A DNA stretch of 64,000 nucleotides from an uncultured Candidatus Saccharibacteria bacterium (GCA_964573395.1 CAZNJI010000001.1:34996-98995); one strand, 5' to 3'; counted from the stretch's first letter, positions 14,793-43,300 are shown. The notes: generated from the sequence alone by a model not told the origin. A program made the numbers and translations.

Positions 14793-14824
<32 letters not shown>

Positions 14825-15981: not shown

Positions 15982-16046
<65 letters not shown>

Positions 16047-23529: not shown

Positions 23530-23622
23530 TTCAAAATAATACCATGACAGCTTGCTGAAGAGTATTTTATCCACTGCGAATATGTTGACATTTTTAGCAA
23601 CCCTTGTATGATTGCATGGTCT

Positions 23623-25047: not shown

Positions 25048-25048
25048 C

Positions 25049-26842
25049 ATGATTGCAGTAATGAAAAAAATCAACCTTTCGCTTTTTTCGTGGATGATGC
25101 TCGGTATCGCAATCATCGGCATAGCCGCAACAGCACTAGTGTACCAAGAAGGGCTCACGCTCGCGCTCGTTGATGCGCAGTCCCATTTGAATTTCGGGAA
25201 GCTTTTTTTTGACAGCAGTACTCCGGGTATCAGCCAGATAGGGTTTTGGCCGCCGCTTCTGCACGCGCTCTTAGTGGTGCCTACCCAAATTCCTTTTTTG
25301 TATGAAACCGGCCTTGCGGCGGCAATCGTGCTTATTCCAGTACTCGGGATTGGCGCATACTATCTGTATAAGCTCATTTTCTTGCTCACCGCGAGTACGC
25401 GTTTCAGTATTGCAGGGGTAGTTATTTTCGCGCTTAATCCGTTCGTGCTTTATTACGCCAGCGTGCCGATGATGGAAACGCTCTTCCTCTCCATGATGAC
25501 CCCTTTGTTGTTTTATTTCGTGAAATGGCAGGAAACAGGCAAGATCGCATTCTTGCTCTATTCTGCATTTTTTGTTTCTCTTGCCTGTCTGGCTCGATTT
25601 GACGGATTCGCTTTTATTCCAGTTTTTGTTATTGCCGCCGGAGGTTTCCTTCTGTCCCGGAAAGTTTCAAAAGCTGAACTTGAGGCAACGCTCGTGCTTG
25701 CTGCTCCGCTCTTTTTAATCGGCGTCATTATCATCCTTTCATACAGCAGCATTTACGGAGATAGCCCGTTTGAATTCTTGAGCGGAAAATGGTCTGCATT
25801 TTCCCAGCAGAAATTTTTGTCACTTCCATCTCGATTTTCCCTCTCAGGATCCGTTACCTACTTGAGCCTAGCGGCATTTTCAATGCTCGGCAAAGGGCTT
25901 TCTTTTGCCGGCATTATCGGGCTCATTATTCTTACCTGTATTCGTCGAGCATTTGGACTTCTGTTGATTGTGCTTGCAAGCATGGCGCCTGCGGCGCTTG
26001 TCGTGTTCACGCTTTTTACTGGAAGCACGGTAATTTATCTGCCGACACTTCCTCCATTTACCGAATTCTTCAATGAACGCTACGGGCTGACACTCTTTTT
26101 ACCTGCCGTACTTGCAACGATATTCGGCTCATACGCACTTACCCTGCTTCGTCCAAGCCGCCGGTTTCTACGGCAGGGGCTATTCGTTCTTTCGTGGGCG
26201 CTTTTATCTTTCGGCATGCTCAGCACTTTTGCATTTAGCTTGAATACTTTTTTCGGAAACAAATTCTCTCTCTTAAAAGAAGCAACGGTGAACATTGTGC
26301 CACGAACCGAAGAGCAAAAAGTAATTGGCCAATATTTCTGCGACCATCCGCCGACAGGATACGTACTCATGACGCGCGCTCTTTTGAACGCTGTTCCCAT
26401 CCACTCCTGTACTCCGCTGAAGCAGTTCATCATTGAATCGAACTTCCCGTTCTTTGAGCAGACGATCGAGCGGCCATGGCTGTATGCGGAATATGTCGTC
26501 CTGCATAATGAAAATACCGCAAGCGATTACGAGCTTTCCTCTGATGAGCCGACAAGAATTTGGTCCAAGAGCCGGGAACTTTTCGATCGATTCTATGCGC
26601 CAGTGCAAAAAACGGCCCACTATACGCTCTACCGGCTCGATCAGGGAAGAGTGCGGGGGTATGCAGAATTCATCGGACTTCCGGAAGAGAAAATTTATAC
26701 CCTACAGGAAGTAAGGTCGAAGCTCTCCAGTCGTTATTATGAAGAGCTTGGCGTTGCCTCAGCGAAGGTGCTTGTCGATCAAGACGATGAATATCTCAAG
26801 AAAACGAAGCAGTTCGAAGGGTACGGCAGAGCTACTCGATAG
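25049..26842 (+). CDS. Polytopic membrane protein, GT-C-like glycosyltransferase candidate
   Basis: The protein has about 12 transmembrane helices and an extracytoplasmic DxD-like motif near the N-terminus (VDAQSHLNFG). It is a paralogue of 49676-51301; the shared blocks are D(A/Q)(Q/E)SHLN, LNP(F/N)VLY and (V/T)PM(M/T)E. Confidence 0.7.
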   Translation: MIAVMKKINLSLFSWMMLGIAIIGIAATALVYQEGLTLALVDAQSHLNFGKLFFDSSTPGISQIGFWPPLLHALLVVPTQIPFLYETGLAAAIVLIPVLGIGAYYLYKLIFLLTASTRFSIAGVVIFALNPFVLYYASVPMMETLFLSMMTPLLFYFVKWQETGKIAFLLYSAFFVSLACLARFDGFAFIPVFVIAAGGFLLSRKVSKAELEATLVLAAPLFLIGVIIILSYSSIYGDSPFEFLSGKWSAFSQQKFLSLPSRFSLSGSVTYLSLAAFSMLGKGLSFAGIIGLIILTCIRRAFGLLLIVLASMAPAALVVFTLFTGSTVIYLPTLPPFTEFFNERYGLTLFLPAVLATIFGSYALTLLRPSRRFLRQGLFVLSWALLSFGMLSTFAFSLNTFFGNKFSLLKEATVNIVPRTEEQKVIGQYFCDHPPTGYVLMTRALLNAVPIHSCTPLKQFIIESNFPFFEQTIERPWLYAEYVVLHNENTASDYELSSDEPTRIWSKSRELFDRFYAPVQKTAHYTLYRLDQGRVRGYAEFIGLPEEKIYTLQEVRSKLSSRYYEELGVASAKVLVDQDDEYLKKTKQFEGYGRATR

Positions 26843-26888: not shown

Positions 26889-29800
26889 ATGACAACTCAC
26901 TACCGTTTCCACATGAAAAAACTTGTCCAGGGACTCTTGATTCTCATGCTCTTTTTCAGCGTTGTGCCGAAACCGGCAGAAGCTGCTCTTCCTGATGGTT
27001 TTGAAATCAAAACAATCGTTTCCGGCCTGAATCTTCCCACTGCGTTTGCGTTCGCTCCGGGAAATAAAATCTTCGTCGCGCAAAAAGGCGGCACTATTCG
27101 GCTCATTGAAAACGGCGTACTCAACCCAACGCCGGTCATTGCCATTCCAAACGTAAATCAGGCGGGCGATCGAGGCGTGCTCGGTATTGCCACGGATCCG
27201 AATTTTCAAACGAATGGCTATATCTACGTATTTCACACGCACGAAACGAACTCAGCGAATCCAAATGGCCCGAAAACGGGAATCCTTCGCCGGTTAACCG
27301 TGGTAAACAATGTCGCTTCAATGGATTCATCAGTTATCCTTCTTGGAACAACATTCGGAAGCGCGCTGCAGCCATCGTGCACGAATTTTCCGGTAACCGC
27401 AGATTGCGTTCCGTCGGATTCGCTCGCGCATTCAACCGGGGGAATCTACTTCGGCCCTGACGGCAAGCTCTGGATTGCAACCGGAGACGGTTCTGGATTC
27501 AACGGAAACGACCCGCTCGCGCTTCGCAGCCAGAGCCTCGATGCGCTTTCCGGAAAAATTCTTCGCATCAATCCGGATGGCACCGCACCGGCCGACAATC
27601 CGTTCTATAACGGAGACCCGAATGCGAATCGCTCAAAGGTGTGGGCGCTCGGCTTTCGCAATCCGTTCCGCCTTACATTCCGCCCTGCAACTGGAAAGCC
27701 GTATCTGGCGGATGTCGGCTGGTACAGCTATGAAGAAATAAATTTTGGAACGAAGGGTGCTAACTATGGATGGCCATGCCGAGAAGGAGACATTGCAACA
27801 ACGTATAACTGCACTCCTTCGTCTGCGACTACTGAACCATTTTATAAGTACGGTAGAACCGATCTTGGGGCATCTATTACTGGAGGAGCGTTTTCGGGAA
27901 ATGCGTATCCAGCCGAATACCGCGATCAGTATTTCTTTGCGGACTTTTCAAACGATTGGATGAAGCGAATGACGATTGATCCGTCAGACAGTTCGATTGT
28001 CAGCATCGATAACGTCATCGACAGCGGCGCTGGCGGCATCGTGGATATTAAAGCTGGCCCTGACGGATCGATTTATTACATTTCGATTTACACCGGTTCG
28101 ATCAATAAGATCGAATATGATTCAAACCGCCAACCAACCGCGGTTATTGCTGCAACCCCAACAAACGGTACCGCACCGCTCTCTGTGCAGTTCAATTCAG
28201 CGGGAACCAATGATCCCGATGGAAATCTGGCCGGCATTGAATGGAATTTCGGCGATGGAAGCCCGGTTTCAACCGAGGCGGCTCCGACGCATACCTATGC
28301 GCTCGGAACCTACACCGCAACCCTTACGGCTCGCGATACACTGGGCCGCACCGGCGTCCAAACGGTAACCATTTACTCTGGCACCGAGCCAACAGGAGGC
28401 CAGGGAAATACGAAGCCGCACCTAACTGCAGTAACAACTGATCCAAATCCAACTGTTATTGGAAGAGACGTGAAAGTGAGCGCGACGGTTACTAATGCCG
28501 GCGGAACCGATCCGTTTGTCGTCGACATTGAAATCTATAATGCCGCAGGAAATCTCGTCGGCTCTCGAGCGTGGGAAAACATCAGTCTTGAAAACGGCGC
28601 AACCGAAACCTTTTCATTCGATTGGCTGCCGCCGCTTATCGGCACCTACCGCGTTTCGGTCGGCTTGTTCTATGACGGATGGACCGGCTTGCATGAATGG
28701 AACAATTTTTTCTACGAATTCGAAGTAGGAGAGCGCATTCCGGTAACCGAGAATCTCATCGCGAATCCATCTCTTGAAACCGAAGGATCAGCTGCAGGCG
28801 TTCCTGCTTCCTGGGAAAAAGGAGGATATGGAACCAATACTCGCACCTTCACCTATCCGGTAACGGGCAGCGGCAGTGCACGAGCGGCTCGCATTGATAT
28901 GTCCAATTTCTCATCGGGGGATGCGAAATGGATGAATGATCCTGTTCCGGTTGTTCCGGGCACTCAGTATCTGGTATCAAGCCGGTATCGCTCTGACGTG
29001 ACGACAACCGTTACCGCGCGCATCATAAAAACGGATGGCACATCTGTATATAAGTGGGTAAACGATACTCTTCCGACCGAAGGGTGGGCGCAGTTCGAAG
29101 GCACGTTCACTGCTCCGGCAAATGCTGCCAGCGTTGTCATTTTCCATTTGATTCGCACCAATGGGTATCTTGAAACGGATGATTACTCGCTCTCGGCAGT
29201 TGCTTCAGCCTATCAAGGAGACACTGTCCGGCCGACACTCAACATTACCGCGCCGACATTTGAACAAACGATTTCCGGCACATTTTCTTTTGCAGTAACG
29301 GCAAATGACGACAAGAAGGTAAAGCGAGTCCAGCTTATCCTTGACGGCAAACTCGTAGGCGGGAGCGATCTAACTGCGCCATTTAATTTTTCATATGACA
29401 CCAGCACGCTAGTCAACGGTACCCATGTGGTACAGGCGCAAGTATGGGATGCGGCAGGAAACACTCGCACCACGCTCCCGCTTTCATTTACCGTCCAGAA
29501 CGGGGGCAGTGCGCTTACGCCATCCGGAACCGGATCGCTTGATTTCGACGGGGTTGATGATTACGTGAATTTTGAGCGATGGAATATTGAAGAGACGAAC
29601 GGATTCACCGTTGAAGCGCTGTATACGCCGAAGATTGTTACTGCCGACGGGGTCATTCTTTCAAAGAGCGATGTCGGGTCGGTTGACTGGGAATTGGGAT
29701 ACAAGGCGCTTTCCGGCGGATCGGTTCGTCCGTACTTTACGGTAAAAACGCAAGAAGGAGCGGTTGCAACCGCCGAGGGCGGCGCTATTTCCGGCGGCGA

Positions 29801-30980
29801 ACTAGCGCACATTTCAGGAGTATTTGATGGAATGAAAATCCGTCTCTATAAAAATGGAAGCCTTGCCGCTGAAACAGCACTCGCAGGAACAGTAGCAACG
29901 AGCCAGAAGCTCGTATACATGGGAGCGCGGCCAGACATGAGCCAACCGCTGAAGGGAGAACTTGATTCGGTCCGCGTCTGGACGGTGCCAAAGACCATTA
30001 CTGAGATTCAGTCGATGGTAAATACTGAAGAGATCGGCACCGGAAACGGCCTCATCAAGCACTGGAAGCTCAATGAAGGATTCGGCCAAGACGTGATCGA
30101 CAGTTCAAATTCTGGCCACCATGGCGTGCTCGGAAACTCTGACGGAAATGATGAAAACGATCCGCGATGGATCGGCGGCTTGGGAAACGGCTCAACTGGA
30201 ACATTCTCCGTCGCGTATGTTGCAACAACTATTTCCGATAATCGGCTTGCTCCAGGAGAAGAGGTGACTATTACGTCATCAGTAAAAAATACTGGCGATA
30301 GCGCTGGGTTTGCAATTCTGTATTACGACATTTTTGATGAAACCGGGACCCGCGTGTATAACCGCTACTTTGACGGCGAGTCGCTCCTGGTAGGAGAACA
30401 GCGCGATTTCTCCATCAACTGGAGCACGAATACTCCTGGCCGGTACCGCGTTGCGTTTGCCGCAATCAAGCTCAATTGGAGCGGGCTCTATCATTGGGAG
30501 AACAGCGCGGCAACGTTTATCGTTGAAACGAACGAGCACCAGGTGTACGATGATGCGCTCAAGCCTGGCTGGGCGAACTGGTCATGGGAAACGACAACCG
30601 ATTTCAGTAATGCCGATTCTGCGCATGAAGGAACGCAGGCACTCTCGGTAACACCAACGACTCCATGGAGCGGGTTATATCTGCACACTGAGCCACTTGC
30701 AACGGATAACCGCACGATGCTCAACTTCGCCATTAAGGGAAAAACAGCCGGTGGTCAGGTACTGCAGCTTCGCCTCTACGATGAAAATCGCCAAGGGCTT
30801 CCGCGCGTGCCGCTCGCGCACTATCTTCCGGATGGAGTGAAAAGCGATGCGTGGTCGACCGTAATCATTCCGCTTGCTGATCTTGGCGCAGGCGGAGCTC
30901 CGATTACCGGATTCGTAATCCAGGGCATGAGCGGGGCAGTTGAACCGGTATACCTTCTCGACGCAATCAAGTTCCAATAA
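26889..30980 (+). CDS. Giant secreted multidomain protein: soluble aldose/sorbosone dehydrogenase-like beta-propeller, PKD, CARDB-like, CBM4/9-like, Ig-like, LamG/ConA-like domains
   Basis: A signal peptide is present (LLILMLFFSVVPKPAEA). The glucose/sorbosone-dehydrogenase propeller blocks are LNLPTAFAFAPGNKIFVAQKGG, IATGDGSG and LSGKILRINPDGTAPADNPF. The PKD motif is PLSVQFNSAGTNDPDGNLAGIEWNFGDGS. The CBM-like block is NLIANPSLETEG. The LamG-like block is LDFDGVDDYVNFE...GELDSVRVW. Confidence 0.85.
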   Translation: MTTHYRFHMKKLVQGLLILMLFFSVVPKPAEAALPDGFEIKTIVSGLNLPTAFAFAPGNKIFVAQKGGTIRLIENGVLNPTPVIAIPNVNQAGDRGVLGIATDPNFQTNGYIYVFHTHETNSANPNGPKTGILRRLTVVNNVASMDSSVILLGTTFGSALQPSCTNFPVTADCVPSDSLAHSTGGIYFGPDGKLWIATGDGSGFNGNDPLALRSQSLDALSGKILRINPDGTAPADNPFYNGDPNANRSKVWALGFRNPFRLTFRPATGKPYLADVGWYSYEEINFGTKGANYGWPCREGDIATTYNCTPSSATTEPFYKYGRTDLGASITGGAFSGNAYPAEYRDQYFFADFSNDWMKRMTIDPSDSSIVSIDNVIDSGAGGIVDIKAGPDGSIYYISIYTGSINKIEYDSNRQPTAVIAATPTNGTAPLSVQFNSAGTNDPDGNLAGIEWNFGDGSPVSTEAAPTHTYALGTYTATLTARDTLGRTGVQTVTIYSGTEPTGGQGNTKPHLTAVTTDPNPTVIGRDVKVSATVTNAGGTDPFVVDIEIYNAAGNLVGSRAWENISLENGATETFSFDWLPPLIGTYRVSVGLFYDGWTGLHEWNNFFYEFEVGERIPVTENLIANPSLETEGSAAGVPASWEKGGYGTNTRTFTYPVTGSGSARAARIDMSNFSSGDAKWMNDPVPVVPGTQYLVSSRYRSDVTTTVTARIIKTDGTSVYKWVNDTLPTEGWAQFEGTFTAPANAASVVIFHLIRTNGYLETDDYSLSAVASAYQGDTVRPTLNITAPTFEQTISGTFSFAVTANDDKKVKRVQLILDGKLVGGSDLTAPFNFSYDTSTLVNGTHVVQAQVWDAAGNTRTTLPLSFTVQNGGSALTPSGTGSLDFDGVDDYVNFERWNIEETNGFTVEALYTPKIVTADGVILSKSDVGSVDWELGYKALSGGSVRPYFTVKTQEGAVATAEGGAISGGELAHISGVFDGMKIRLYKNGSLAAETALAGTVATSQKLVYMGARPDMSQPLKGELDSVRVWTVPKTITEIQSMVNTEEIGTGNGLIKHWKLNEGFGQDVIDSSNSGHHGVLGNSDGNDENDPRWIGGLGNGSTGTFSVAYVATTISDNRLAPGEEVTITSSVKNTGDSAGFAILYYDIFDETGTRVYNRYFDGESLLVGEQRDFSINWSTNTPGRYRVAFAAIKLNWSGLYHWENSAATFIVETNEHQVYDDALKPGWANWSWETTTDFSNADSAHEGTQALSVTPTTPWSGLYLHTEPLATDNRTMLNFAIKGKTAGGQVLQLRLYDENRQGLPRVPLAHYLPDGVKSDAWSTVIIPLADLGAGGAPITGFVIQGMSGAVEPVYLLDAIKFQ

Positions 30981-30992: not shown

Positions 30993-32312
30993 ATGAGCCA
31001 GGAATCAAGAACAATTGAAGATTCTGTATTTCGGTCGCCAAACCGGATTGCGGTAAACATTGCGCTCTTAGTGGCGTCCGTGCTTCTTTTGATCATTCTC
31101 ATTGTTTTCAAGTCGACTCGCGCCGGATTCGGACACTGGTTTCTGTTCAGCTACACAGTGCTCGTTACGGTGTTTCAGTTGTTCCGGCTTTCCGCTTCGC
31201 TCATTTTTCCGAAATTCCTCTCTCAGATAGTTTACCCGGTCAAGGCCGAGAATTACGAGCCAATGGTAACGATCGTCGTGCCGTGCAAAAACGAGGAAGC
31301 GGCAATTAAGCATACGCTCGAAGCGTGTTTTGAGGCTGAATATCCGAAGGAAAAGCTTGAGGTCATCGTGATCAATGACGGATCAACCGACGGCACGATT
31401 CACCAGATTGGCCTGGTGAAGAAAAATCACCCCGAACTCATCGTCATCGATTGGAAAGAGAACAGGGGAAAGCGCGAGGGAATGGCGGCAGGCTTCCGGC
31501 AGGCACGGGGAGAAATCGTCGTTCAGCTCGATAGCGACAGCTACATTGAGCCGAAGACGTTCAAAGAACTGATTCAGCCATTCGCAAACCCGGCTATCGG
31601 AGCGGTATGCGCGCACGGCGACGTGGCGAATGCGGACAAAAATATCATTACGAAAATGCAGTCGGGGTACTATTATGTTTCATTTCGGCTTCTCAAGGCT
31701 GCGGAATCAATCTTCTTCTCAGTGCTTTGCTGCAGTGGCTGTTCATCGGCATATAGAAAAGACATCGTGCTTCCGGTGCTTGATAGCTGGCTCAAGGAAT
31801 CCTTTTTGGGAGTTACCGTAAAGCACGGAGACGACCGGTCGCTGACGGGATGGGTATTAAAGCGCGGATTCCGCACCGTGTATACCGATCGCGCTCGAGC
31901 ATATACCATTGCTCCGGAAAACATTCGTCAGCTGATGAAGCAGCAGGTTCGCTGGAAAAAGTCGTGGGTATCGAACGCCTATTTTACCTTTAAATACATT
32001 TTTAAAACTGACCCACTTTTCGGAGCGCTTTATTACGTTCCGCTCATTCTTATCTCGTTCGTCACGCCGCTGGTTGCACTCTTGAATCTGTATCTGCTTC
32101 CAACCATCAGCGGAGAAAGCCCGGTCATTTATCTTCTCGGCGGAATCATCACCAGCTTGCTCTTCGTGATGTGCGCGCTCTATTACGCGCGCGGAGAACG
32201 CCGTTACATCGGCTATTTTTTGCTGTGGCAGATACTTTCAGCAGCCGTGCTGAGCTTCATCCTTTATTACTCGTTCGCTCGTTTCCGAGACCAGCGCTGG
32301 GGAACTCGCTAA
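30993..32312 (+). CDS. HAS/NodC/chitin-synthase-like processive GT2 (beta-GlcNAc-polymer synthase candidate)
   Basis: The motifs VVPCKNEE, NDGSTDGT, QLDSDSY, HGDDRSLTGW and QQVRWKKSW (QxxRW) are present, with N- and C-terminal transmembrane helices. The GDDRxLT motif is the one seen in hyaluronan and NodC-type synthases. Confidence 0.85.
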   Translation: MSQESRTIEDSVFRSPNRIAVNIALLVASVLLLIILIVFKSTRAGFGHWFLFSYTVLVTVFQLFRLSASLIFPKFLSQIVYPVKAENYEPMVTIVVPCKNEEAAIKHTLEACFEAEYPKEKLEVIVINDGSTDGTIHQIGLVKKNHPELIVIDWKENRGKREGMAAGFRQARGEIVVQLDSDSYIEPKTFKELIQPFANPAIGAVCAHGDVANADKNIITKMQSGYYYVSFRLLKAAESIFFSVLCCSGCSSAYRKDIVLPVLDSWLKESFLGVTVKHGDDRSLTGWVLKRGFRTVYTDRARAYTIAPENIRQLMKQQVRWKKSWVSNAYFTFKYIFKTDPLFGALYYVPLILISFVTPLVALLNLYLLPTISGESPVIYLLGGIITSLLFVMCALYYARGERRYIGYFLLWQILSAAVLSFILYYSFARFRDQRWGTR

Positions 32313-32316
32313 CAAC

Positions 32317-35052
32317 ATGCATTCCGTACATACCCACAAAAGAATCCGAATCGGAATCGTGGCAGCGGTTATTTTTTTGACTGCCGCAGTCGTTCTGGCG
32401 ATTCACATCATTAATGGAAGCGCTTTGCCGAATCGAATCCTGCACGATATCCGTCGCCTCTCTTCTCACGCCAGAGAAATGATCGTTCCATACAACATCA
32501 AGACGCCTGAGCTGTCTGCCGAAGCTGCACAGACCGTGCCAGTGCTGGTGTACCACGGCATCGGTTCGGATGATTCTCGCTATTCAATGAAGATAGCGCA
32601 GTTTCGAAACCACATGATCGCCCTAAAAGAAGCTGGTTTTCAAACTGCCTCGGCGGAAGATTTTTTCGCATTTCTTGAAGGAAAGAAAACCCTTCCGGCA
32701 AAATCATTCGTGCTGACGTTTGACGACGGACGGAAAGATAGTTACTACAACGCCGATCCGATTCTCGCGCGCCTCGGCTTTTCGGCGGTGATGTTCGTTG
32801 CTCCCGGCCAGTCGCTGGTAGAGTCAACGGAGAAATATTCTCGCTACTATTTAAATCCGATAGAGCTTTCCCGCCTCATGAAAACAGGGCGTTGGGAGAT
32901 TGGTTCGCACGGCGTTCAGGAAAACGGGGGATACATAGCGATTGACGCGGAAGGTACTACGGGGCAGTTTTTGAGCAATAAAAAGTGGCTTCCAGATGTT
33001 CTGCACATTGAAACTGATGAAGAATACAACGCGCGCGTTTCGTATGAATTATCTCAATCAAAGCAATCGCTCGAACTTTTTACCGGAAAACCGGTTATCA
33101 TGTTTTCATATCCATTCAGCGATTATGGGCAAGAAAGCCTCAACGCTTCTCGCGTTGCCAGTACGGCTATTAATGCGGCTGTCACAGATAACTACCGCTA
33201 TGCCTTTCGCCAGCAGTGGGGATACGACAGCGGATATATCGGAAATCGCCCAGGAGATAATCCGCTGTTCTTGAAGCGCATCGAGCCGGCATCCGACTGG
33301 ACCAATGAGCGACTTCTTTTGTTCTTGGAAGGCGGAGTCGACGTGTCTCTTGAAGAAGCAGCTCATCTGACGCTCGCTGAAAGCGCGCTTCGGTTTCGGG
33401 TTGCCTGGGGAGGAAAATCCGCCTTTGAATCGGAAAAAATTACCGTACAACCGGACGGAAACATTGCAAGCGTTGCCGCCATTCTTGACGGTACGCATAC
33501 TTGGAAGAATTATCAGGTAACGATGGATGCATCGCTTGATACCGCTTCTTCAGTTGCACTCTATCTTAGATCGCAGGAGCCGGGAGAAGGGGTCCGCTGC
33601 CGCTTTTCCTCTGACGCTGTGTACATAGAAACAGTGAAAAATGATGTAGCAACGTATCGAAAGCAGTATTCGCTCCAGGAAGAAGTAGGGAAGAATCGCC
33701 GTCTGAGTGCAAGTATTTTTGGAAATACGGTCGGTTGTTTTGAGGAAGGCGTGCTAGTTGCAGCAGGGAACATTCCAAACGTACTGCCTATTGGCGGAAC
33801 TGGTATTGAGTACTGGGCATACAACAACCGCGCACCGCTTGAAATCAGCTCTCTTTCCATTGTCCCAAGCGCGGCAATGAATGATTCACTGGTGAGCCAG
33901 TTTGAATCCCTTTCGGATAAATCGCTGGTTCGCGTGGTGCCAACGGCAGAACTGAAAGATGCATTGATAGCGGAATCGCCAAGAACTTTTCGGTATGCAG
34001 GGGAAAATCTCATAAACATGGAAACGTTCGTCCGTGGCGGTTCTGCAACGTATGGCGAAATCAGCGGTACGACTGCAAACATTATTCTTGCAAGGCAGGC
34101 AGCGGCCGGAGGGTTCTGGTTCTGGTCACCGCTTTCAGTTGCGCCACATCAAGAATATGCAATCGAGGCTTCCTATGAATCAACCATTGAAAGCGAGCTA
34201 ATGGTGCGATACGGCACACAGAGCGGCACAGTATGGAAATCAATCCGCATGCTGCCGGCAGGATCATTTTCATACCAAGAGGTTATTGAAATTCCGGAAG
34301 GCGCTCAAACAATGGAGGTTCTTCAGGTGATTCGCGATTCCGGAAGTTTGGCCGTTATTCATCCAAGCATCCGACTCTTGCAGTCTGGAAAATTCGCGCG
34401 CGGGATGGTAACGCTTTCATTTGATGACGGATATAAATCATTTATGACCAATGCTCTGCCGGTACTTTCTGAATTTAAGATGCCAAGCACGGTTTCAATT
34501 ATTACCAGCCATGTCGGCTATAGCCGGTATCTTTCCGCTCAAGACATAAACAGCATCAGCCGAAAAGGGCATGAGATTGCTGCCCATACTAGAACACATA
34601 CGCATCTTTCGGAAAATCAGGAAGAAAGTTTGATTACCGAGATTGTCGGCTCTTGGTATGATCTTTCAAAGGCCGGATACAAGATAACGTCATTCGTTTA
34701 TCCGTACGGAAACTTCTCGCTCGATGCGAAGAATATTGCCGCAAGAAAGTTTTCTGGTGCGCGAACGGTCAGCCGGGGTTTTAATACGAAAAATACCGAC
34801 CCGTACCTTCTGAAAGACCAGCTAGTAACCCGGGATATTTCTGTTGTGGCTGTTCAAGAGTATCTTGCCACTGCAAACGCGAATCAATCATGGCTTATTC
34901 TTGAACTGCATGAAGTTTTGAAAGAAGACAGTCAAAATGATTCAGAGTCAATTACGATTGCAAAATTACGTGAAATTTTAAAGGCTGTTCAGGATTCCGG
35001 GGTCGAAGTGGTAACGCTTGAAGAAGGCATAAGACAATTAAAAGAGCGCTAA
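32317..35052 (+). CDS. Membrane-anchored protein with two NodB-type polysaccharide deacetylase domains (PgaB/chitin-deacetylase-like)
   Basis: The first NodB domain reads VPVLVYHGI...FVLTFDDGRKDSYYNADPILARLGFSAVMFVAPG. The second reads MVTLSFDDGYKSF...HEIAAHTRTHTHL. The gene lies 4 nt downstream of the synthase gene. Confidence 0.85.
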   Translation: MHSVHTHKRIRIGIVAAVIFLTAAVVLAIHIINGSALPNRILHDIRRLSSHAREMIVPYNIKTPELSAEAAQTVPVLVYHGIGSDDSRYSMKIAQFRNHMIALKEAGFQTASAEDFFAFLEGKKTLPAKSFVLTFDDGRKDSYYNADPILARLGFSAVMFVAPGQSLVESTEKYSRYYLNPIELSRLMKTGRWEIGSHGVQENGGYIAIDAEGTTGQFLSNKKWLPDVLHIETDEEYNARVSYELSQSKQSLELFTGKPVIMFSYPFSDYGQESLNASRVASTAINAAVTDNYRYAFRQQWGYDSGYIGNRPGDNPLFLKRIEPASDWTNERLLLFLEGGVDVSLEEAAHLTLAESALRFRVAWGGKSAFESEKITVQPDGNIASVAAILDGTHTWKNYQVTMDASLDTASSVALYLRSQEPGEGVRCRFSSDAVYIETVKNDVATYRKQYSLQEEVGKNRRLSASIFGNTVGCFEEGVLVAAGNIPNVLPIGGTGIEYWAYNNRAPLEISSLSIVPSAAMNDSLVSQFESLSDKSLVRVVPTAELKDALIAESPRTFRYAGENLINMETFVRGGSATYGEISGTTANIILARQAAAGGFWFWSPLSVAPHQEYAIEASYESTIESELMVRYGTQSGTVWKSIRMLPAGSFSYQEVIEIPEGAQTMEVLQVIRDSGSLAVIHPSIRLLQSGKFARGMVTLSFDDGYKSFMTNALPVLSEFKMPSTVSIITSHVGYSRYLSAQDINSISRKGHEIAAHTRTHTHLSENQEESLITEIVGSWYDLSKAGYKITSFVYPYGNFSLDAKNIAARKFSGARTVSRGFNTKNTDPYLLKDQLVTRDISVVAVQEYLATANANQSWLILELHEVLKEDSQNDSESITIAKLREILKAVQDSGVEVVTLEEGIRQLKER

Positions 35053-35076: not shown

Positions 35077-38055
35077 ATGACTACTACCACTACGAAGATC
35101 GTTCGCACCATTATTTTGGGACTCTGCGCTTTTTCTGCAGTAATTTTAGTACGTTATTTTTCCGTTGATCATCCGCGTACCGTGCATGTGTTTACTCCGG
35201 CTCCATCGTTTCGCGCTGCTGCGATTGATCCATTCGAGCAGGAATTTGCTGTTGAAGAGGTGGGAGCAATGTCTGAATCTTCACATAGCACGTTTTGGCT
35301 TAATTCCGGAGGCAGAATGACCGTACAGAACGGCATTGCAAAGACCATACAAGGCGATTTACCGGCAAGTGATCGATGGTATCAGGAATACGCCCGCACC
35401 AATGCGCTTGATACCGACGGAGGCTTGCATCCGCAGAATTTGTTCCGTCTCGTTACCCGATCACAGTGGCAAGATGTCCGCCAGGAGGTATTTTTTAAAA
35501 TAGAAAAAACGAATATGAGCGACAGTCCGAACCAAAACGCGTCGAATGGTGTTTTGTTCTTTAATCGTTACAGAGATGCAGATAATCTCTATTATGTCGG
35601 TGTTCGCGTTGATGGAAATGCTGTTGTCAAAAAGAAAATTAATGGTGTGTATTACACCTTGGGGTTGAATAAAATTGTCGATGGCGTGTATAATGAAGCG
35701 TCACATCCAAATCTCCTTCCAACCGATAAGTGGATTGGAATGAAAACGGAAGTAAAAAACGAAACTGATGGCACAGTAACCATCATTCTTTTTACCGACA
35801 TTGGCCAAACTGGCACTTGGACGGAAGCACTCCGGGTCACTGATGATGGAAATCAATACGGTGGTCCTGTTTTCTCTGAAAGTGGTTTTGCGGGGATTCG
35901 ATCTGACTTTATGGATTTATCATTTAGCTCATACACAGTCAGTGACATAGTTGCGAATGCTCCTACTGTCCAAGTAGATCAAGTACCGCCAACCCTCACG
36001 CTTCTCGGAAATGAAAAGGAGGTTGTTCTGGTGGGTGCACCGTACAACGACGCAGGGGTAACCGTCACTGACAACATAGATAAGAAGCCAACACTCGTTA
36101 CGGCAGGGCTTCCGGTAAATACCCAAACGCCGGGAAAGAAGCAGGTTACGTACACCGCAACGGATGCCGCTGGGAACACCCAGTTTAAAAGCCGAACGGT
36201 AGAAGTAATTGCAAAAAGTGCGCCGCTCAGTGTTACTAACAAAACGCTTACCTGCGCGCAGCTGCTTGCTGCTTCAAGCTTCTACCGCGATAAGCACATG
36301 CAGGCGCTCCGTGAATATAACGCTCGCGTTGCCGCCAAAGATACCGCTACTGCTGAGACGCTTGAAACCATTGCCTGTACACCGCAGGCAATCTGGATTT
36401 CTAACTACACCGCCAGTACGGCAAATATTGAGTCTCATGTAAAAAGCAGGATCGCCGATGCGGAAAAAGAAGGAAAACTTCCAGTGTTTGTTATCTACAA
36501 CAGCCCGCATACCGGAACGTATAAATGGGGAAGCGGATTAACGCCGGGGCAAGGCCATCTTGATTGGATTTCAGCGGTAGTTCGCGGTATTGGAAGTTCC
36601 AACGCGTGGGTGGTTGTCGAACCTGATTTAATTGGCCTTTCATTTGAATACAACAGTGCTGAGCGTCTTGCCGCTCGAACGGATATTAAAAATGCAGTCG
36701 AGAAACTGCAAAGTGCGCCGAATATTCGCGTGTATCTTGATGCCGGACATAGCAATTGGCGGGGAATTCAGGATGTTGCCAAAGCACTCAATGAATCCGG
36801 CATTGCTGCCGCTGATGGCTTCGCAACAAACATTTCAAACTTTCGTTTTACCAACAACGAAATTGATTACGGCAACCAACTCTCTGCTCTAGTTGGCGGA
36901 AAGTCGTTTATTATTGATACAAGCCGAAATGGAAATGGCCATTCTCAAACAAACGAATGGTGTAATCCGAGCGGCAGAAGTATTGGTCCGGCGCCAACAC
37001 AGAATACGGGCTACGATAAAGTAGATGCTTTTGTCTGGATTAAGAATCCAGGAGAATCCGATGGAACTTGTAGTGGCGGTCCGACGCCAGGGCAATTCTG
37101 GCAGAGCTACGCGCTTGGATTGGTAGATACAGCGAAGAAACTTTCAGGAAATCTTGCACAGCAAGGGATTGTAACGGTAAGTAAAAACGTTAGTGCAAAC
37201 CCCACGCCAACTCCTGCACCAACCCCAACGCCAACACCCCCGCCGGCTCCTGCGCCAAAACCAGGGCCGGTAATTATTTCAGACGGAACAGATTCACGTC
37301 CAAACATTCCTGCAACGCCTACACCTACCCCTGCACCAACCCCAACGCCAACACCCCCGAAACCTACCACGCCAACCCCTGCACCTACTCCTGCTCCCGT
37401 TGCGCCAAAGCCGGCTCCGGCAACTCCAAAACCTACTCCAGCTCCAACGCCGAAACCAACTCCTGCACCATCTGCTCCTGTAGCCAGTAGCGGTGGAGGC
37501 GGAGGGGGAGGCGGCGGAGGTCGATCATCATCTGTATCTCAAACTCCTAAAGTCATTTCTTTAAACGATACAGCAACAGTGAATCGATTGAGAACGTCTG
37601 AACAATTGAAAAATTTAAATTCAGTGGCAGTTAAAGATTTTACAGCAGAAGGTATTGTTCCACCTCCACCTGAAGTAATAGCAATGCTTCAAGTGCCAGT
37701 AACTGCAATTGGCCCAGGAGTTACAGAAGAAAAAATTGAAATTGCCCGTGAACGAATTACTAATAGTCCGACTGGTGCAGGAATCATTGGAAAATCCATT
37801 GGTAATAATTTATCCTTCGGCGCACGCGGAACCGAAGTAGCTGAACTCCAAGTTTTTCTTGCTAAATTCCCAGAACTATATCCGGCTGGTCTAGTAACAG
37901 GGTACTACGGAAAACTGACCCGTGAAGCAGTGCAACGATTCCAGGTTTCGAACGGTATTTTTATTACCCCGCCAGCAGTGGGTACGGCAGGATACGGCTC
38001 GGCTGGCCCGCGCACTCGAACGCTTATCAATCAGATTCTCTTGGGGGCAAATTAA
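35077..38055 (+). CDS. Secreted glycoside hydrolase family 6-like enzyme with Ig-like N-domain, Pro/Thr linker and C-terminal peptidoglycan-binding domain
   Basis: The GH6 blocks are VFVIYNSPH...[29 protein letters not shown] and [14 protein letters not shown]. The linker is [14 protein letters not shown] and is followed by a Gly run. The C-terminal PG_binding_1-like block is [17 protein letters not shown]...[15 protein letters not shown]. Confidence 0.8.
37212..37359 (+). repeat. Identical 30-nt direct repeat within the Pro/Thr linker coding region
   Basis: The sequence CCTGCACCAACCCCAACGCCAACACCCCCG occurs at 37212-37241 and again at 37330-37359. A GGN run lies at 37490-37520. Confidence 0.6.
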
Positions 38056-38096: not shown

Positions 38097-39704
38097 TTAT
38101 CGTCTAAATGGTTCTTTCTGAGAGAAGGGCGCACCGGGTGCCGGATGAACGAGTTCAGAAGGAGGGAATTCGGGAATATTCAATTCAGGGCACTTAATCA
38201 TGTTAATCCATCGCTTCGTTGTTTTATACACGAATCCAGTACCGGTTTCATCAATCGGGCCAACCTGTTTCCATGGATTCAATACATTCGTTGCTTCTCT
38301 TACCTGGAACTGCTTCACTGCCTGGTAGCTTCCTGGTCCGTATACGCCATCAACCACCAAGTTTGCATTCATGTATTCATTCAAGAAAGTCTGAAGCCGC
38401 ACGACATTTGCGGTATCGTTCGGGGACCCCCAGCGAATGTAGCTGGTAATATATTCGCCACACGCTTCTTCACCAAGAATTTCTCCTGGCGGATTAGGGC
38501 GTGAACCACTTCTTCGGCTACTGCCACTGCTTCCCCCGCTGCCGCCGTTTCCATTGTCATCATCGTCAGACTCATCATCATCGTTCGGATCGTAGGTGTC
38601 ATCATCGTCTGCGTTACCGTCGGTATGGCATCCTGGGTCGGCTTCGTCTATGAGCTCATCGCCGTCGTTGTCCGCTTCGTCGCTGCACTCCGGGTCGGTA
38701 TCTCCGCCTCCGCCGCCGTTTCCATCTTCATTAGTCTCATCATCGTCGGTTGGCACATATGAATCTGGGTTATCTGCATCGCCATCAGAGTGGCATCCCG
38801 GATCCGCCGCATCAATCAATTCATCATCGTCATTGTCTGCCTCATCGCTGCATTCCGGATCGCCTCCTCCCGTTCCGCCTCCGTCAGGGCAATCAAAAGC
38901 AATCTCTACGACCAGATCATTAAAATCATAGTCGCCATTGCTTACCATGTCTTCAAACGCCAAAATGTAATTATCTGGGCGCGGATTATAGGTAACAACC
39001 TGGTCTTTATTATTCGCATTAAGGGAATTTTGGGCTGCAATTGGAATAGGGGCAGCGCCTTCATCTGAAGTTTGGATTGCGAAGCCAATGCTTGTTATCG
39101 AGTCGTCCGGAATGACGAATTCGTATGAGTCTCCGCTTGCCGCTTCCTCAGTTTCGTCAAATCCTGGAACTTCCCCTTTTCGAAAGAGCGGGGTAAACGT
39201 GCTAAGGTCGCCGTTCGTATAGTAGCCGAACACGTTTCCATTCTGCGCCGCCTCATCGATGAATGCCGCCGTCACGGTGATTTCTTCTCCTTCGGTCACG
39301 CTCCAGAGCTGGTATTGGGTTTGGTCCACTGTTACGTCTATCTGGTCATCGGGGAATTTTTCATCGAGTACCTCTTGCAGCGTTTTTTCGGTTCCGATGC
39401 TCGGTCCGAATTCCTCTGCCGCATCGTCATCCAAAGAGTCGGGCGTGGTGCATGAATTCTCCGCAACAAGCAGGATGCTTGGCGATTCTTCTTGAACAAT
39501 CGCCTCGGATTTAGTTTGCTCCGTTTCCTCTGGGTCTGGTTCAGGAGTTTCTACCGGAACATCTTCAAGAGGGGAAGTAACTTCTTCCGTTTGAGGTTCT
39601 GCTGGCGACACTTCTTGTCCGAAGGCAAAAAATGAATCTGTATTGAAAGTAAGAAAACTTAGTGCGAGAAACAATCCAATTCCGTAATGTAAAAATTTTT
39701 TCAT
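38097..39704 (-). CDS. Secreted acidic repeat protein with C-terminal peptidoglycan-binding-like domain
   Basis: A signal peptide is present (MKKFLHYGIGLFLALSFLTF). There are two tandem repeats of about 55-72 aa each, of the form DPECSDEADND(D/G)DELID(A/E)ADPGCH(S/T)DG. The C-terminal block NVVRLQTFLNEYMNANLVVDGVYGPGSYQAVKQFQ looks like a peptidoglycan-binding domain. Confidence 0.75.
   Translation of the reverse strand: MKKFLHYGIGLFLALSFLTFNTDSFFAFGQEVSPAEPQTEEVTSPLEDVPVETPEPDPEETEQTKSEAIVQEESPSILLVAENSCTTPDSLDDDAAEEFGPSIGTEKTLQEVLDEKFPDDQIDVTVDQTQYQLWSVTEGEEITVTAAFIDEAAQNGNVFGYYTNGDLSTFTPLFRKGEVPGFDETEEAASGDSYEFVIPDDSITSIGFAIQTSDEGAAPIPIAAQNSLNANNKDQVVTYNPRPDNYILAFEDMVSNGDYDFNDLVVEIAFDCPDGGGTGGGDPECSDEADNDDDELIDAADPGCHSDGDADNPDSYVPTDDDETNEDGNGGGGGDTDPECSDEADNDGDELIDEADPGCHTDGNADDDDTYDPNDDDESDDDDNGNGGSGGSSGSSRRSGSRPNPPGEILGEEACGEYITSYIRWGSPNDTANVVRLQTFLNEYMNANLVVDGVYGPGSYQAVKQFQVREATNVLNPWKQVGPIDETGTGFVYKTTKRWINMIKCPELNIPEFPPSELVHPAPGAPFSQKEPFRR
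38481..38861 (-). repeat. Tandem coding repeats (2 copies, Asp/Cys-rich) in the acidic protein gene
   Basis: Seen in the translation of 38097..39704; the two copies are adjacent and about 70% identical. Confidence 0.7.
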
Positions 39705-39901: not shown

Positions 39902-40321
39902 ATGAAAAAGCTTTTCGGAGAATTGGGACGGTTTGGACTCGTCGGGGGAATCAATACCCTGGTGGATCTCGGAGTGTTCAATTTGCTTATTTTTTTCTCC
40001 GGCCAAAACATTGAAAGACACTACACTCTCTTTAAGGCACTATCGTTTACTGTTGCTGTCGTTAATAGCTTCATCCTGAATAAGTTTTTCGTCTTCAGAA
40101 GCAAGGAAACAGCGGCTAGTAAGATTTTCCCCTTCCTCATCGTCAGTCTAGGGGGGCTTGCTTTAAATAGCCTATTTGCATCGTTCATTTTCCACCAACT
40201 TAATGCCGCGTACGGACAAGCCGACGTGAAATTTCACGCCAACGTAGCGGCAATTATTAGTACCGGGGTCGTAATGGTCTGGAATTTTCTTGGTTACAAG
40301 AAAATTGTATTTAAACTATGA
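39902..40321 (+). CDS. GtrA-family membrane protein (polyprenol-sugar translocation)
   Basis: The N-terminus FGLVGGINTLVDLGVFNLL is followed by four transmembrane helices, and the protein is about 139 aa, all typical of GtrA. The gene overlaps the downstream giant gene by 4 nt. Confidence 0.8.
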   Translation: MKKLFGELGRFGLVGGINTLVDLGVFNLLIFFSGQNIERHYTLFKALSFTVAVVNSFILNKFFVFRSKETAASKIFPFLIVSLGGLALNSLFASFIFHQLNAAYGQADVKFHANVAAIISTGVVMVWNFLGYKKIVFKL

Positions 40322-43300
40322 AACCAGTCTTCTTATCGATAATTATACCGGCGTATAACGAAGCGAAGCGCATCGGCTCCACCCTCAGAAGTATCGACGA
40401 GTATTTACGAGATAAGGAGTATACGTACGAAATTATTGTAGTGAGCGATGGTTCTTCTGATGACACCGAAACGGTTGTTTCAGGCCTCGCGTCGGAGGTA
40501 CGGAACCTCGTGCTTCTCTGCAATAGGGTTAATAGCGGAAAAGGGTATGCAGTGAAGTGCGGCATGCTCAAAGCAACGGGAGAATACCGGTTATTTCTTG
40601 ATGCTGACCACTCAACGCATATCAGTAATCTAGAAAGTTTCCTTCCGGAAATTCAGGGTTCTGATGCAAGTGTTATTGTTGGGTCAATCGCGCTCCAAAC
40701 GTCAAAAAGTATCGACCGTGCCGGATGGTACCGGAAAATTCTTCGGCCGATTTCGAAAAAAATCATCCATTCATTTTTACGCGTCGGGGTCAAGGATACC
40801 CAGCGCGGTTTCAAGCTCTTTACAAAACGGGCCGCGGAAATTATTTTTCCAAAAAGTGATAGTAAGGGGTTTCTGTTTGATGTTGAACTCTTAGTTATCG
40901 CCACCCATAACAACATGGTGGTAAAGGAATTGCCTGTTGATTGGGATAATCCGGCTGGGTCGAAAATCAAGCTCTCTTCGTACATAAAAGCGTTTGTTGA
41001 TTTCTTGAAAATCGTCGGAAAAAAAATAAGCGGTAAATACCGCTCTGCGTCGCATTTCCTCATTCAGCATTTCGATGAAGAAACTGAGAGTATAAAAGGA
41101 AAAGGGTTTTTCTATAAGAACAAAGAATTCGTCCACCATAGCAATCTGCACCACACCCAGACGGCGCTCTATAACCTGCTGAGTTCGCAGAAGATTTTTA
41201 TCGTGCTCCTGGTTGGCATTTTGGCAATCGGGTTCATTATCGATTGGCATGCAACGCTGGTTGCCATCATTGCAACCCTTACCATCGTGTACTTCCTCGA
41301 TCTTCTGTTCAATGCATTTTTAATTTACCGAAGCTTCGCCAAGAATCCGGAGATTGCGGTAAGTGGACAGGAGCTATCAGCACTCTCAGATGCAGCACTG
41401 CCAACCTATACTATTTTCTGTCCGCTCTACAAAGAGTGGCAAGTGGTGCCGCAGTTCGTCTCTGCAATGCAAGCACTCGACTACCCCGTCGAAAAACTTC
41501 AGGTGATGTTCCTGTTGGAAGAAAATGATGTCGAGACGATTGAAAAAATCCGCGAGTACGATTTGCCGGAACATTTCGAAATTGTCGTGGTGCCGCACTC
41601 AAAGCCAAAAACGAAGCCGAAAGCAATGAACTATGGCCTCAAGCATGCGCGAGGGGAATACTTGGTAATTTACGATGCTGAAGATGTCCCCGAGCCCGAT
41701 CAGCTCAAGAAGGCCGTTCGCGCTTTTGAGAAAGTAAAAGAAAACGTTGTCTGCATCCAGGCAAAGCTGAATTTTTACAATCCGCACCAAAATGTATTAA
41801 CCCGCGCTTTTACGGCTGAATACTCGCTGTGGTTTGACCTGGTGCTTCCGGGATTGCAGTCGCTCAATGCGCCGATTCCGCTTGGCGGCACGTCGAATCA
41901 TTTCAAGGTTTCGGCGCTTCGGGAGCTTTCCGGTTGGGACGCGTTTAACGTAACTGAAGATGCCGATCTGGGTATGCGGCTTGCAAAGCGCGGCTACCGA
42001 ACGGCAATTCTTGATTCAACCACGCATGAAGAGGCAAATTCCGGCCTCTGGAACTGGTTCAATCAGCGCAGCCGCTGGATCAAGGGCTACATTCAAACCT
42101 ATTTCGTGCACACGCGCGATCATGAAAAATTCCTTGAGAAAGGGAAACTGAAAGACGCGATTATCTTCCATTTGAATATCGGCGGAAAGATTCTTTCAAT
42201 GTTTATCAACCCATTCATGTGGCTTCTCACCGCTTCCTACTTCCTGTTCCGGGAAACCGCCGGGCCGTTCATTGAAACGCTCTTCCCGACAACAGTGCTC
42301 TATCTTGGCGTATTCTCGCTCGTGTTCGGAAATTTCCTCTACATGTACTATTACATGATCGGCTGCATGAAGCGCGGTTACACCGGGCTCGTAAAGTATG
42401 CGTTCGTCATTCCATTCTATTGGCTCGGCATGAGCGCCGCTGCCTGGCGGGCGCTCTACGAAGTAGTGGTGAATCCGCACTACTGGTCCAAGACGGTGCA
42501 CGGGCTGCACCTGCAGAAAGAAAAAGGAGAGCCGGAAATTCTTGAAGATATCGAAACAAACGCCGAACAGATTCCGCAGTACTTCTGGACAAGAGTGCGG
42601 CAATCCATTTTTTCAGGCGCCGGCGTGCTGGTGGTGGCAACCATTATCGCAAACGTCTTCAATCTGCTTTTCAACATTTATCTTGGCAATCGGCTCTCGC
42701 TTGAAGAATTCGGCGTTATTACGGCGCTTAATACGCTCGTGTATTTAATTAGCATCGTGGTGAGCGCGTACGGAACGACCATCGTCCACCAAGTGGCGCA
42801 CCTGGTCGGGCGAATGAGCCAGTTTGCCGGGTTTTCATACTTTAAAAAGATTAGAGCCTACGGCTTCCTGATCGCCATTGCTGCTGCGGCGCTCTGGCTG
42901 TTCCTCACGCCAGCAATCGCGAATTACCTGCACATTTCAAACAGCCTCCTCGTTGCGTCATTCGCGCCGGCGATTATCGCGGTCTTGCTTGCTTCAGTGA
43001 ATCGCGGTTATCTCCATGGCAGCCTGTTCTTCAAAAGCATTGCCATTATCGTTTTAGTCGAAGTGATAGCAAAGCTTGGGTTGGCGATTTGGTTCGTTGA
43101 ATCCAAGATTCAATGGTTTGCGGCATTATCATTGCCGATTTCAATGATTATTGCCTACCTCATATCGCTTTTCATGGTGAAGCGCCCGGAGAAAGTGCCG
43201 CTTGATCGTTCAACCCAGAAAGATTTCTCATTCTCATTTTTCGGTGCAGCACTCGTTACTGGATTCTCGACTATGGCGTTCTTGAGCCTCGATGTTTTCT

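Follow-up and report, generated by a model that had tools for sequence, protein, structure and literature searches.

What kind of surface polymer is built by a processive glycosyltransferase and the double deacetylase encoded next to it in an uncultured Candidatus Saccharibacteria bacterium is the question raised by a stretch of 64,000 nucleotides (GCA_964573395.1 CAZNJI010000001.1:34996-98995), the whole of which is referred to here as the window. The surface molecules of Patescibacteria and DPANN archaea, which live attached to host cells, are almost unknown. An initial annotation of the window had taken the two genes for candidate machinery of a partially deacetylated polymer resembling poly-N-acetylglucosamine (PNAG) or chitosan. 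Further analysis revealed a third conserved partner, termed X, and we lean towards the view that the trio builds and partly de-N-acetylates a surface polymer based on N-acetylglucosamine (GlcNAc), which in this genome is likeliest a β-1,4-linked chain similar to chitin or chitosan. Domain content, motifs and gene linkage were observed directly, whereas the proposed chemistry and role are drawn from sequence, fold and linkage.

The synthase, a glycosyltransferase family 2 (GT2) protein of 439 residues, is encoded on the plus strand at 30993..32312 and was assigned from Pfam, NCBIfam and PDB matches, a tree and its hydrophobicity. Four nucleotides downstream, on the same strand, begins the gene (32317..35052) of a 911-residue deacetylase with a single N-terminal transmembrane (TM) segment (residues 8-38), so that both reading frames and the membrane anchor are as initially described. 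The next plus-strand gene (35077..38055) encodes a 992-residue membrane-anchored protein that begins with the X domain. When one genome was scanned per GTDB species, relatives of the GT2 turned up in at least 548 genomes, and gene neighbourhoods were counted in the best 80 loci from these genomes, 67 of which have enough upstream sequence to be informative about a dehydrogenase and 67 at least 3.5 kb of downstream sequence to be informative about X. The 80 loci are mostly from Patescibacteria, the other metagenome-assembled genomes (MAGs) being labelled Micrarchaeota, Woesearchaeota, Nanoarchaeota, Bathyarchaeia, Anaerolineales and Actinomycetes, and the close homologues all come from Patescibacteria MAGs, which makes it credible that the window itself stems from CPR, the candidate phyla radiation. 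In 76 of the 80 loci, the GT2 gene is directly followed on its strand by one for a PgaB-like carbohydrate esterase family 4 (CE4) protein, at projected gaps of -18 to +164 nucleotides (nt), and X, usually straight after the CE4 gene, is found in 57 (53 of the 67 with sufficient downstream sequence). The pairing read from the window alone is thus borne out. Judged by this linkage, the GT2 and CE4 proteins form a genuine functional pair within a three-to-four-gene module of CPR and DPANN genomes, and the pair is a widespread module rather than a local curiosity of this episymbiont.

Four loci, at 43-49% identity, have no detectable CE4 gene 3' of the synthase: L065, L074 and L076 in Woesearchaeota or Nanoarchaeota MAGs, and L064. 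One of them, L074, still carries a dehydrogenase gene upstream, and the archaeal versions of the cassette may make an unmodified polymer. A related cassette is found in a cultured Firmicute, on a megaplasmid of Paenibacillus cellulositrophicus (L081; NZ_CP045296.1, 261845-269475), in the order two-NodB deacetylase, GT2 with a PilZ domain (39% identity to the window GT2), CE4 plus jelly-roll protein and glycoside hydrolase family 18 (GH18) protein. Its CE4 plus jelly-roll protein has the same layout as that of the cassette here. The catalytic motifs of this protein look degenerate (FEDG, and no histidine at the position of H198 of the window deacetylase), the PilZ domain suggests control by cyclic di-GMP, and the cassette may offer a tractable model for the family. 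In 16 of the 80 loci (for example L035, 14916-16202) a histidine kinase with HisKA and HATPase_c domains lies about 2.6 kb downstream of the GT2, a hint that some lineages place the cassette under two-component control. Public annotation labels the trio as "hyaluronan synthase", "polysaccharide deacetylase family protein" and "hypothetical protein", and a literature search on hyaluronan and chitin synthases in CPR, Patescibacteria and DPANN found no paper describing the cassette.

The full set of processive motifs claimed for the GT2 could be read directly from its sequence, namely D129-G-S, D180-S-D182, G279-DDRSLT, Q317-QVRW321 (in QQVRWKKSW) and a C-terminal WGTR. Its hydrophobic segments (residues 15-48, 341-372, 375-399 and 405-428) correspond to a layout of two N-terminal and about three C-terminal segments. 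With DxD, GDDR/GEDR and QxxRW motifs and a C-terminal TM region, it possesses the features of the processive class comprising hyaluronan synthase (HAS), NodC and chitin synthase. Pfam searches matched PF00535 (2.7e-29), PF13641 and PF03142 (Chitin_synth_2; 5.6e-23, 81.8 bits against a cut-off of 27). Among solved structures, the single sequence is most similar to the Chlorella virus HAS (CvHAS; 1.9e-29), and the family profile to Xenopus HAS1 (XlHAS1; 3.6e-44) and CvHAS (1.8e-35). By contrast, bacterial cellulose synthases (BcsA) reached about 1e-8 at most with the same profile, over the N-terminal GT-A part only, and no eukaryotic chitin synthase in PDB fell below 1e-3.

The closest NCBIfam model is NodC (TIGR04242), matched over nearly its full length at 159.5 bits against an equivalog cut-off of 550, followed by PgaC_IcaA (TIGR03937) at 132.8 bits against 422.3, which covers residues 85-326 only, the soluble GT-A part. 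As both scores lie under their cut-offs, the GT2 is an equivalog of neither NodC nor PgaC/IcaA. Pairwise comparison gave 32% identity (152 bits) to HasA of Bacillus anthracis pXO1, 29% over 81% of the protein (135 bits) to NodC and about 27% (about 105 bits) to PgaC. In a neighbour-joining tree of 181 catalytic-core columns with 100 bootstraps and few reference sequences, one clade (100% bootstrap) unites the CPR and DPANN GT2s with the Paenibacillus PilZ-GT2 and no other sequences. This clade is sister to CvHAS, HasA and NodC, not nested within HAS, and the joint superclade (96% bootstrap) leaves out both PgaC and a second, cellulose-synthase-like GT2 of the window. A grouping with cellulose or mannan synthases, which would have spoken against a GlcNAc polymer, was not observed. 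On this sequence evidence, the GT2 belongs to no characterised family and represents a separate, well-supported clade sister to HAS, HasA and NodC. To our knowledge, the characterised members of that superclade all use UDP-GlcNAc.

Several signatures of the GT2, including GDDRxLT, RWKKSW and the terminal WGTR, resemble those of HAS, and PgaC lacks GDDRxLT, RWxKSW and WGTR. The loop that matches the "switch loop" of CvHAS reads CCSGCSSAYR, compared to SGPL or GGPL in HAS and CCGPC in NodC. In CvHAS, the carboxylate of glucuronic acid (GlcA) is recognized by Lys177 and Arg341 (PMC12987647). Their equivalents in the GT2, K160 and R320, are kept across the whole clade and also in NodC, and therefore do not reveal the donor sugar; the pair was dropped as a donor-sugar marker for this lack of discrimination.

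The 911-residue deacetylase consists of two fused units, CE4a (TM segment, PgaB-like NodB domain and concanavalin A (ConA)-like domain) and CE4b (domain resembling a carbohydrate-binding module (CBM), and HfsH-like NodB domain). PF01522 matched two stretches, with 126.8 bits against a cut-off of 23.1, in line with CE4/NodB membership. The catalytic domain of CE4a (residues 73-340; 32533..33336, plus strand) is of the PgaB/IcaB type with permuted motifs, matching BpsB at 6.5e-11 and the PgaB model TIGR03938 at 120.3 bits, under its equivalog cut-off of 321.9. In the alignment to PgaB, H80 corresponds to H55, D136/D137 to D114/D115 and H198 to H184, and these four residues of CE4a are invariant in 108 homologues. 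The position of the second metal-binding histidine of PgaB, H189, is occupied by N203, which leaves the Asp-His-His triad incomplete. The subclade that includes the window protein shares the motif SH[AG]xQxxGG, whereas a more distant subclade retains HxxxxH. CE4a has thus lost one metal ligand, and it may be slower, differently metallated or chiefly a binding domain. Among the loci, no correlation was seen between the presence of a dehydrogenase and the subclade with the lost histidine.

The catalytic domain of CE4b (residues 692-908; 34390..35040, plus strand), by contrast, is a canonical NodB domain with a complete set of motifs, FDDG (residues 702-705), H757-TRT-H761, YPYG and LELH865, including the metal triad and the catalytic residues, and 11 of 12 long homologues retain these motifs. 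It spans the whole HfsH model (positions 30-248 of 249) at 90.1 bits, under the cut-off of 400, and the deacetylase barely matches the PgdA model (16.9 bits, cut-off likewise 400). As judged from its motifs, CE4b is clearly the catalytically competent deacetylase domain. Of the two complete NodB domains initially annotated, CE4b therefore stands, whereas CE4a departs from the full motif set at N203.

The β-rich region annotated between the two NodB domains was confirmed by an AlphaFold2 (AF2) model (predicted local distance difference test (pLDDT) score, 84.7), which shows two β-sandwich domains separated by a low-confidence linker. The first (residues ~360-518; 33394..33870, plus strand) is a ConA-like β jelly roll with two conserved cysteines, present in every family member of about 520 residues, and its modelled fold resembles CBM66, DUF1080 and GH16. 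The second (residues ~587-689; 34075..34383, plus strand) is a small β sandwich that belongs to the fused CE4b unit and is weakly related to the CBM4_9 region of a 1363-residue protein encoded upstream. The middle region matched nothing in Pfam, PHROGs or NCBIfam. The homologues fall into a short group of about 95 proteins of about 520 residues, composed of TM segment, CE4 and β domain and equivalent to residues 1-517 of the window protein, and a long group of about 12 proteins of 904-960 residues that include the second NodB domain. Residues 601-909 of the window protein are colinear with the C-terminal ~310 residues of standalone proteins of 557-621 residues (E down to 4e-54), which combine CBM4_9-like domains with a NodB domain; at least seven other loci have the gene of such a protein close to the cassette. 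This colinearity indicates that the tandem-NodB protein is a fusion product of two deacetylases with separate genes elsewhere. Two further CE4 relatives carry other fusions: P0169 (1538 residues) additionally contains a second NodB domain and a lyase-like part of the heparinase II/III type, and P0190 (858 residues; locus L013, from 3195) contains GH18, with a dehydrogenase also encoded at that locus. They give opposite hints on the presence of uronic acid in the polymer.

The third component, X, corresponds to the first ~290 residues of the 992-residue protein, with its domain at residues ~50-295 (35224..35961, plus strand). More than 600 homologues were found, mostly standalone "hypothetical" proteins of 280-330 residues, and X matched nothing in Pfam, NCBIfam or PHROGs, nor in a sequence-profile search of PDB. 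The AF2 model (pLDDT 91.6) shows an N-terminal TM helix followed by a ConA-like jelly roll. Structural similarity search using Foldseek revealed CBM66 as the best match (3.5e-8), followed by L-type lectins, DUF1080, GH16 and polysaccharide lyases of families PL14, PL20 and PL28, with identities of 8-16% throughout. Among the residues that never vary are R124, R164, Y172, Y173, R177, D179, K185, K187, Y192, R275 and D277, with H118 nearly so; several follow an i/i+2 pattern along consecutive strands, which would suggest one conserved face of a sheet, a putative binding cleft or active site. Although X and the first middle domain of the deacetylase share a fold class, hhalign gave no significant match between them (E 0.031, probability 1.6%), and homology is not shown. 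CE4 and X are each anchored by one N-terminal TM segment, which puts their domains on the cell exterior.

In the window, X is followed in the same polypeptide by an immunoglobulin (Ig)-like domain, a GH6 domain, a Pro/Thr-rich linker and a PG_binding_1 domain. The endoglucanase-type GH6 domain (36331..37080, plus strand) matched PF01341 at 182.4 bits (2.4e-53; cut-off 27), with Mycobacterium tuberculosis CelA1 as its closest solved relative (5.2e-57), and keeps the signature motifs VEPD, DAGHS and PGESDG intact. The PG_binding_1 domain (37825..37959, plus strand), assigned by Pfam, is a candidate peptidoglycan tether. The fusion of X to GH6 is also found in L009, and GH6 is also encoded near the cassette in L003; GH6 occurs only in these two loci and the window.

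A fourth gene recurs upstream. A nucleotide-sugar 6-dehydrogenase is encoded directly upstream of the GT2 and in the same direction in 24 of the 67 informative loci. It scored 373 bits with NF040825 (UDP-N-acetylmannosamine dehydrogenase) and 259 bits with TviB (UDP-GlcNAc 6-dehydrogenase), against 215 and 173 bits with UDP-glucose dehydrogenase models; in PDB it matched 4r16 (5.5e-91) and Cap5O (1e-75) far better than UDP-glucose dehydrogenase (UGDH; about 1e-35). By these scores, the enzyme of the relatives would be of the UDP-N-acetylhexosamine (HexNAc) type, not a UDP-glucose dehydrogenase, and it probably supplies a uronic acid of the N-acetylglucosaminuronic acid (GlcNAcA) type as second monomer in about a third of the systems. 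No nucleotide-sugar dehydrogenase of either kind is encoded in the 64-kb window, and a linked UDP-glucose 6-dehydrogenase of the hasB type was found neither there nor in the relatives.

Comparison with known systems showed partial similarity to several of them. As in PgaC/PgaB of Escherichia coli and IcaA/IcaB of staphylococci, to which the pair had been likened, a membrane GT2 is combined with an extracytoplasmic CE4 enzyme that partly de-N-acetylates a GlcNAc polymer, and CE4a shares the circularly permuted motif order of PgaB and IcaB. The likeness holds for this domain but not for the synthase, which belongs to another GT2 clade outside the PgaC branch and fails the family cut-off. Moreover, the cassette lacks the PgaA porin, PgaD/IcaD, the hydrolase-like domain of PgaB and the equivalent of its H189, and instead has a second NodB domain and ConA- and CBM-like domains. 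The synthase shares GDDRxLT, QQxRWxKS(W/F), the C-terminal WGTR and a similar TM layout with class I HAS (CvHAS, XlHAS1 and streptococcal or Bacillus HasA), and the 6-dehydrogenase that adjoins it in a third of the relatives recalls the hasA-hasB arrangement, which in B. anthracis pXO1 takes the order hasA-galU-ugd. Unlike HAS, it falls in a sister clade, has CCSGCSSAYR in the switch-loop region and is accompanied by a HexNAc-type dehydrogenase; HAS operons have no obligatory CE4 partner. NodC and NodB likewise combine a GlcNAc-polymerizing GT2 with an adjacent NodB-fold deacetylase, but NodC has GEDR and no WGTR, whereas here NodA is absent and the deacetylase is large, anchored and multi-domain.

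CE4b aligns along the whole model of HfsH, the deacetylase of the Caulobacter holdfast. HfsH deacetylates a GlcNAc-containing adhesin, and the holdfast is made by a Wzx/Wzy-type pathway; the cassette differs in the score, which is under the cut-off, and in its processive synthase. BcsA/BcsZ resembles it in joining a processive synthase to a secreted or anchored β-1,4-endoglucanase, although here the enzyme is GH6 rather than GH8, is fused to X and is restricted to the three loci named above. The closest system in gene content, likened by shared families only, is a fungal and chloroviral cluster of UNGD (UDP-GlcNAc 6-dehydrogenase), the deacetylase cda1 and CHS8, a CV-class chitin/hyaluronan-like synthase (PMC5122149, PMC7053769). 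In Trichoderma this cluster is induced specifically in mycoparasitism, on host contact, and its product is unresolved (PMC5122149, PMC7053769). The same three activities are clustered in 24 of the 67 related loci when compared at the family level, but not in the window, which lacks the dehydrogenase, and X is not reported in the eukaryotic and viral clusters.

We propose the following model for the assembly of the polymer. On the cytoplasmic side, as judged by homology, the GT2 would assemble UDP-GlcNAc into a β-linked, GlcNAc-based chain and pass it through its own TM channel, like class I HAS and chitin synthases. Outside the membrane, the ConA- and CBM-like domains of the anchored, two-headed CE4 protein would hold the chain while some of its N-acetyl groups are removed. 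More speculatively, X could bind or process the polymer via its conserved region rich in Arg, Lys and Tyr, and in this genome the attached GH6 domain could trim the chain and PG_binding_1 tether it to the wall. A GlcNAc backbone is favoured because the characterised members of the superclade use UDP-GlcNAc, the CE4 partner is near-universal and UDP-GlcNAc is the one sugar nucleotide that no peptidoglycan-making CPR cell can lack. A chitin-like β-1,4 linkage is hinted at by the fusion of CE4 to GH18 in P0190, the Paenibacillus GT2-CE4-GH18 cassette and the intact GH6 fused to X in the window and L009, and the absence of a dehydrogenase from the window would fit a homopolymer in this genome.

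Several observations weigh against a chitin- or chitosan-like homopolymer. The closest named relatives, L002 and L003, both carry the HexNAc 6-dehydrogenase upstream, and a gene for it may thus be present in this genome beyond the window; the GDDR, RWKKSW and WGTR signatures are closer to HAS than to NodC; the conserved residues of X are mostly basic, which would suit an anionic ligand and fits a polycation less well; and P0169 joins CE4 to a heparinase II/III-like domain. In addition, CE4a has N203 in place of the second metal-binding histidine, GH6 could instead work with the second, cellulose-synthase-like GT2 (23608-25047) or be directed at polymers of the host, and our literature search found no biochemical data for any member of the GT2 clade. 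Together, the dehydrogenase, the HAS-like motifs, the basic residues of X and the heparinase fusion hint at a uronic-acid co-monomer. The rival most worth considering, possible but distinctly less than probable, is hence that here too the HAS-like synthase alternates GlcNAc with an N-acetylhexosaminuronic acid, made with a dehydrogenase encoded outside the window, to give an acidic or zwitterionic heteropolymer similar to glycosaminoglycans. Deacetylation by CE4 would leave free amines on this chain, and X would act as a lectin for the anionic polymer or as its lyase, in keeping with the fold matches of X to PL14, PL20 and PL28; fungi and chloroviruses have a parallel cluster (PMC5122149, PMC7053769). 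However, the lyase matches of X are at the fold level only (8-16% identity), the equivalents of the GlcA-recognizing Lys and Arg of CvHAS are conserved in NodC as well, the association with GH18 and GH6 suggests a neutral β-1,4 backbone of the HexNAc/Glc type, and a dehydrogenase is absent from the window and from beside the GT2 in two thirds of the informative relatives. A purely polycationic glycan is not secure, since the dehydrogenase in 24 of 67 relatives points to a uronic-acid co-monomer.

The remaining explanations are far less probable than a chitin-like polymer. That the GT2 makes short NodC-like chito-oligosaccharides, which the NodB-type domains turn into a diffusible signal, is improbable: NodC is the best NCBIfam match (159.5 bits; 29% identity over 81%) and is paired with NodB in rhizobia, but the score is far under 550, no NodA-like acyltransferase was found, and the C-terminal TM region and WGTR match the polymer-translocating HAS, whereas NodC ends in DWLSR; an anchored lectin/CBM-like deacetylase and X with its PG-binding domain would also suit a retained polymer. 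No more credible is a PgdA-like deacetylase of peptidoglycan, or another cell-wall deacetylase, that merely adjoins the synthase. CE4 enzymes commonly de-N-acetylate peptidoglycan, and the neighbouring X protein carries PG_binding_1; yet the GT2 and CE4 genes are adjacent and co-directional in 76 of 80 loci across phyla and both domains of life, the PgdA score is marginal (16.9 bits against 400), and the best CE4 matches are the exopolysaccharide deacetylases PgaB, HfsH and IcaB. Least probable of all is the β-1,6-linked PNAG of the Pga and Ica systems, which the initial annotation had offered as one model. CE4a is of the PgaB/IcaB type and PgaC_IcaA is the second-best NCBIfam match of the GT2, but its 132.8 bits are far under 422.3 and restricted to residues 85-326 (the NodC score likewise staying well below its own cut-off), PgaC lies outside the 96% superclade of HAS, NodC and CPR synthases and lacks GDDRxLT, RWxKSW and WGTR, no PgaD/IcaD-like small partner was recognized, and a ConA-like domain replaces the C-terminal glycoside-hydrolase-like domain of PgaB.

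The preferred reading of a partly deacetylated GlcNAc polymer makes the cassette a concrete and widely conserved candidate for a surface polymer of Patescibacteria and DPANN. A synthase-dependent GlcNAc polymer modified by CE4 is a known theme, and the distinct HAS-like synthase clade, the uncharacterized ConA-like partner X, the fused double deacetylase and the recurrent HexNAc-dehydrogenase link, which mirrors the unexplained fungal and chloroviral cluster, are new. Current labels ("hyaluronan synthase", "polysaccharide deacetylase" and "hypothetical protein") hide the synthase clade, the X family and the dehydrogenase link. A bolder proposal, which we regard as doubtful, is that dehydrogenase, synthase, CE4 and X represent an ancient, previously undescribed CPR/DPANN envelope module for a partly N-deacetylated polymer of GlcNAc and GlcNAc-uronic acid, which would be a zwitterionic counterpart of glycosaminoglycans in prokaryotes. 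If so, the polymer might be a general "contact glycan" of parasitic and episymbiotic lifestyles, by parallel with the UNGD-CDA-CHS8 cluster of fungi and chloroviruses, and X would found a new carbohydrate-active family.

The flanks of the pair are only partly as initially annotated: a large surface protein is indeed encoded upstream and a GH6 protein downstream, but the latter, described as a secreted GH6 hydrolase, is X with Ig, GH6 and PG-binding domains added. The upstream protein (26889..30980, plus strand; 1363 residues) comprises a GSDH-like β-propeller and PKD, CARDB, CBM4_9, Big_7 and LamG domains, its N-terminus resembling PQQ-dependent glucose/sorbosone dehydrogenases (PF07995, 5.7e-48). 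It was considered as a member of the cassette and dropped. Full-length synteny is limited to L009 in the closest subclade, where an orthologue with 57% identity lies beside the cassette, and all other matches concern only the CBM4_9 region, within separate CE4b genes. L009 shares with the window this protein, the X-GH6 fusion, a CAP-domain gene and a 597-residue membrane protein.

The last of these belongs to a neighbouring region (23608-26842) that begins with the second processive-type GT2 (23608-25047; 479 residues; PF13632), which has weak PgaC and cellulose-synthase matches. The polytopic 597-residue protein follows 1 nt later, has no Pfam, NCBIfam or PHROG match and has a homologue with 44% identity in the L009 neighbourhood. 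Convergent with the X-GH6 gene, the minus strand (38097-39704) encodes a 535-residue protein with DUF4114, acidic double-disulfide repeats and PG_binding_1. Beyond it, in region 39902-46235, a gene for a GtrA-family protein overlaps the start of that for a 1554-residue GT2-GT2-GT4 fusion, which is followed by a polysaccharide pyruvyl transferase and more GT4 and GT2 genes; together these genes suggest a distinct pathway for a cell-wall glycan that is possibly pyruvylated. At the other end of the window, region 28-8572 encodes a Wzx-type flippase, a Bac_transf initiating transferase, several GT2 and GT4 proteins and methyltransferases, which indicate a third glycan locus, of the Wzx/Wzy type; a small DUF2334/CE4-like protein (1294-2097) is encoded within it. 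Finally, region 13658-17582 contains a 23S rRNA gene of 3749 nt, compared to 2925 nt in the model, the difference implying insertions of about 800 nt; a 5S rRNA gene comes next, and no 16S rRNA gene is adjacent. CPR genomes typically show such insertions and a lack of linkage between rRNA genes.

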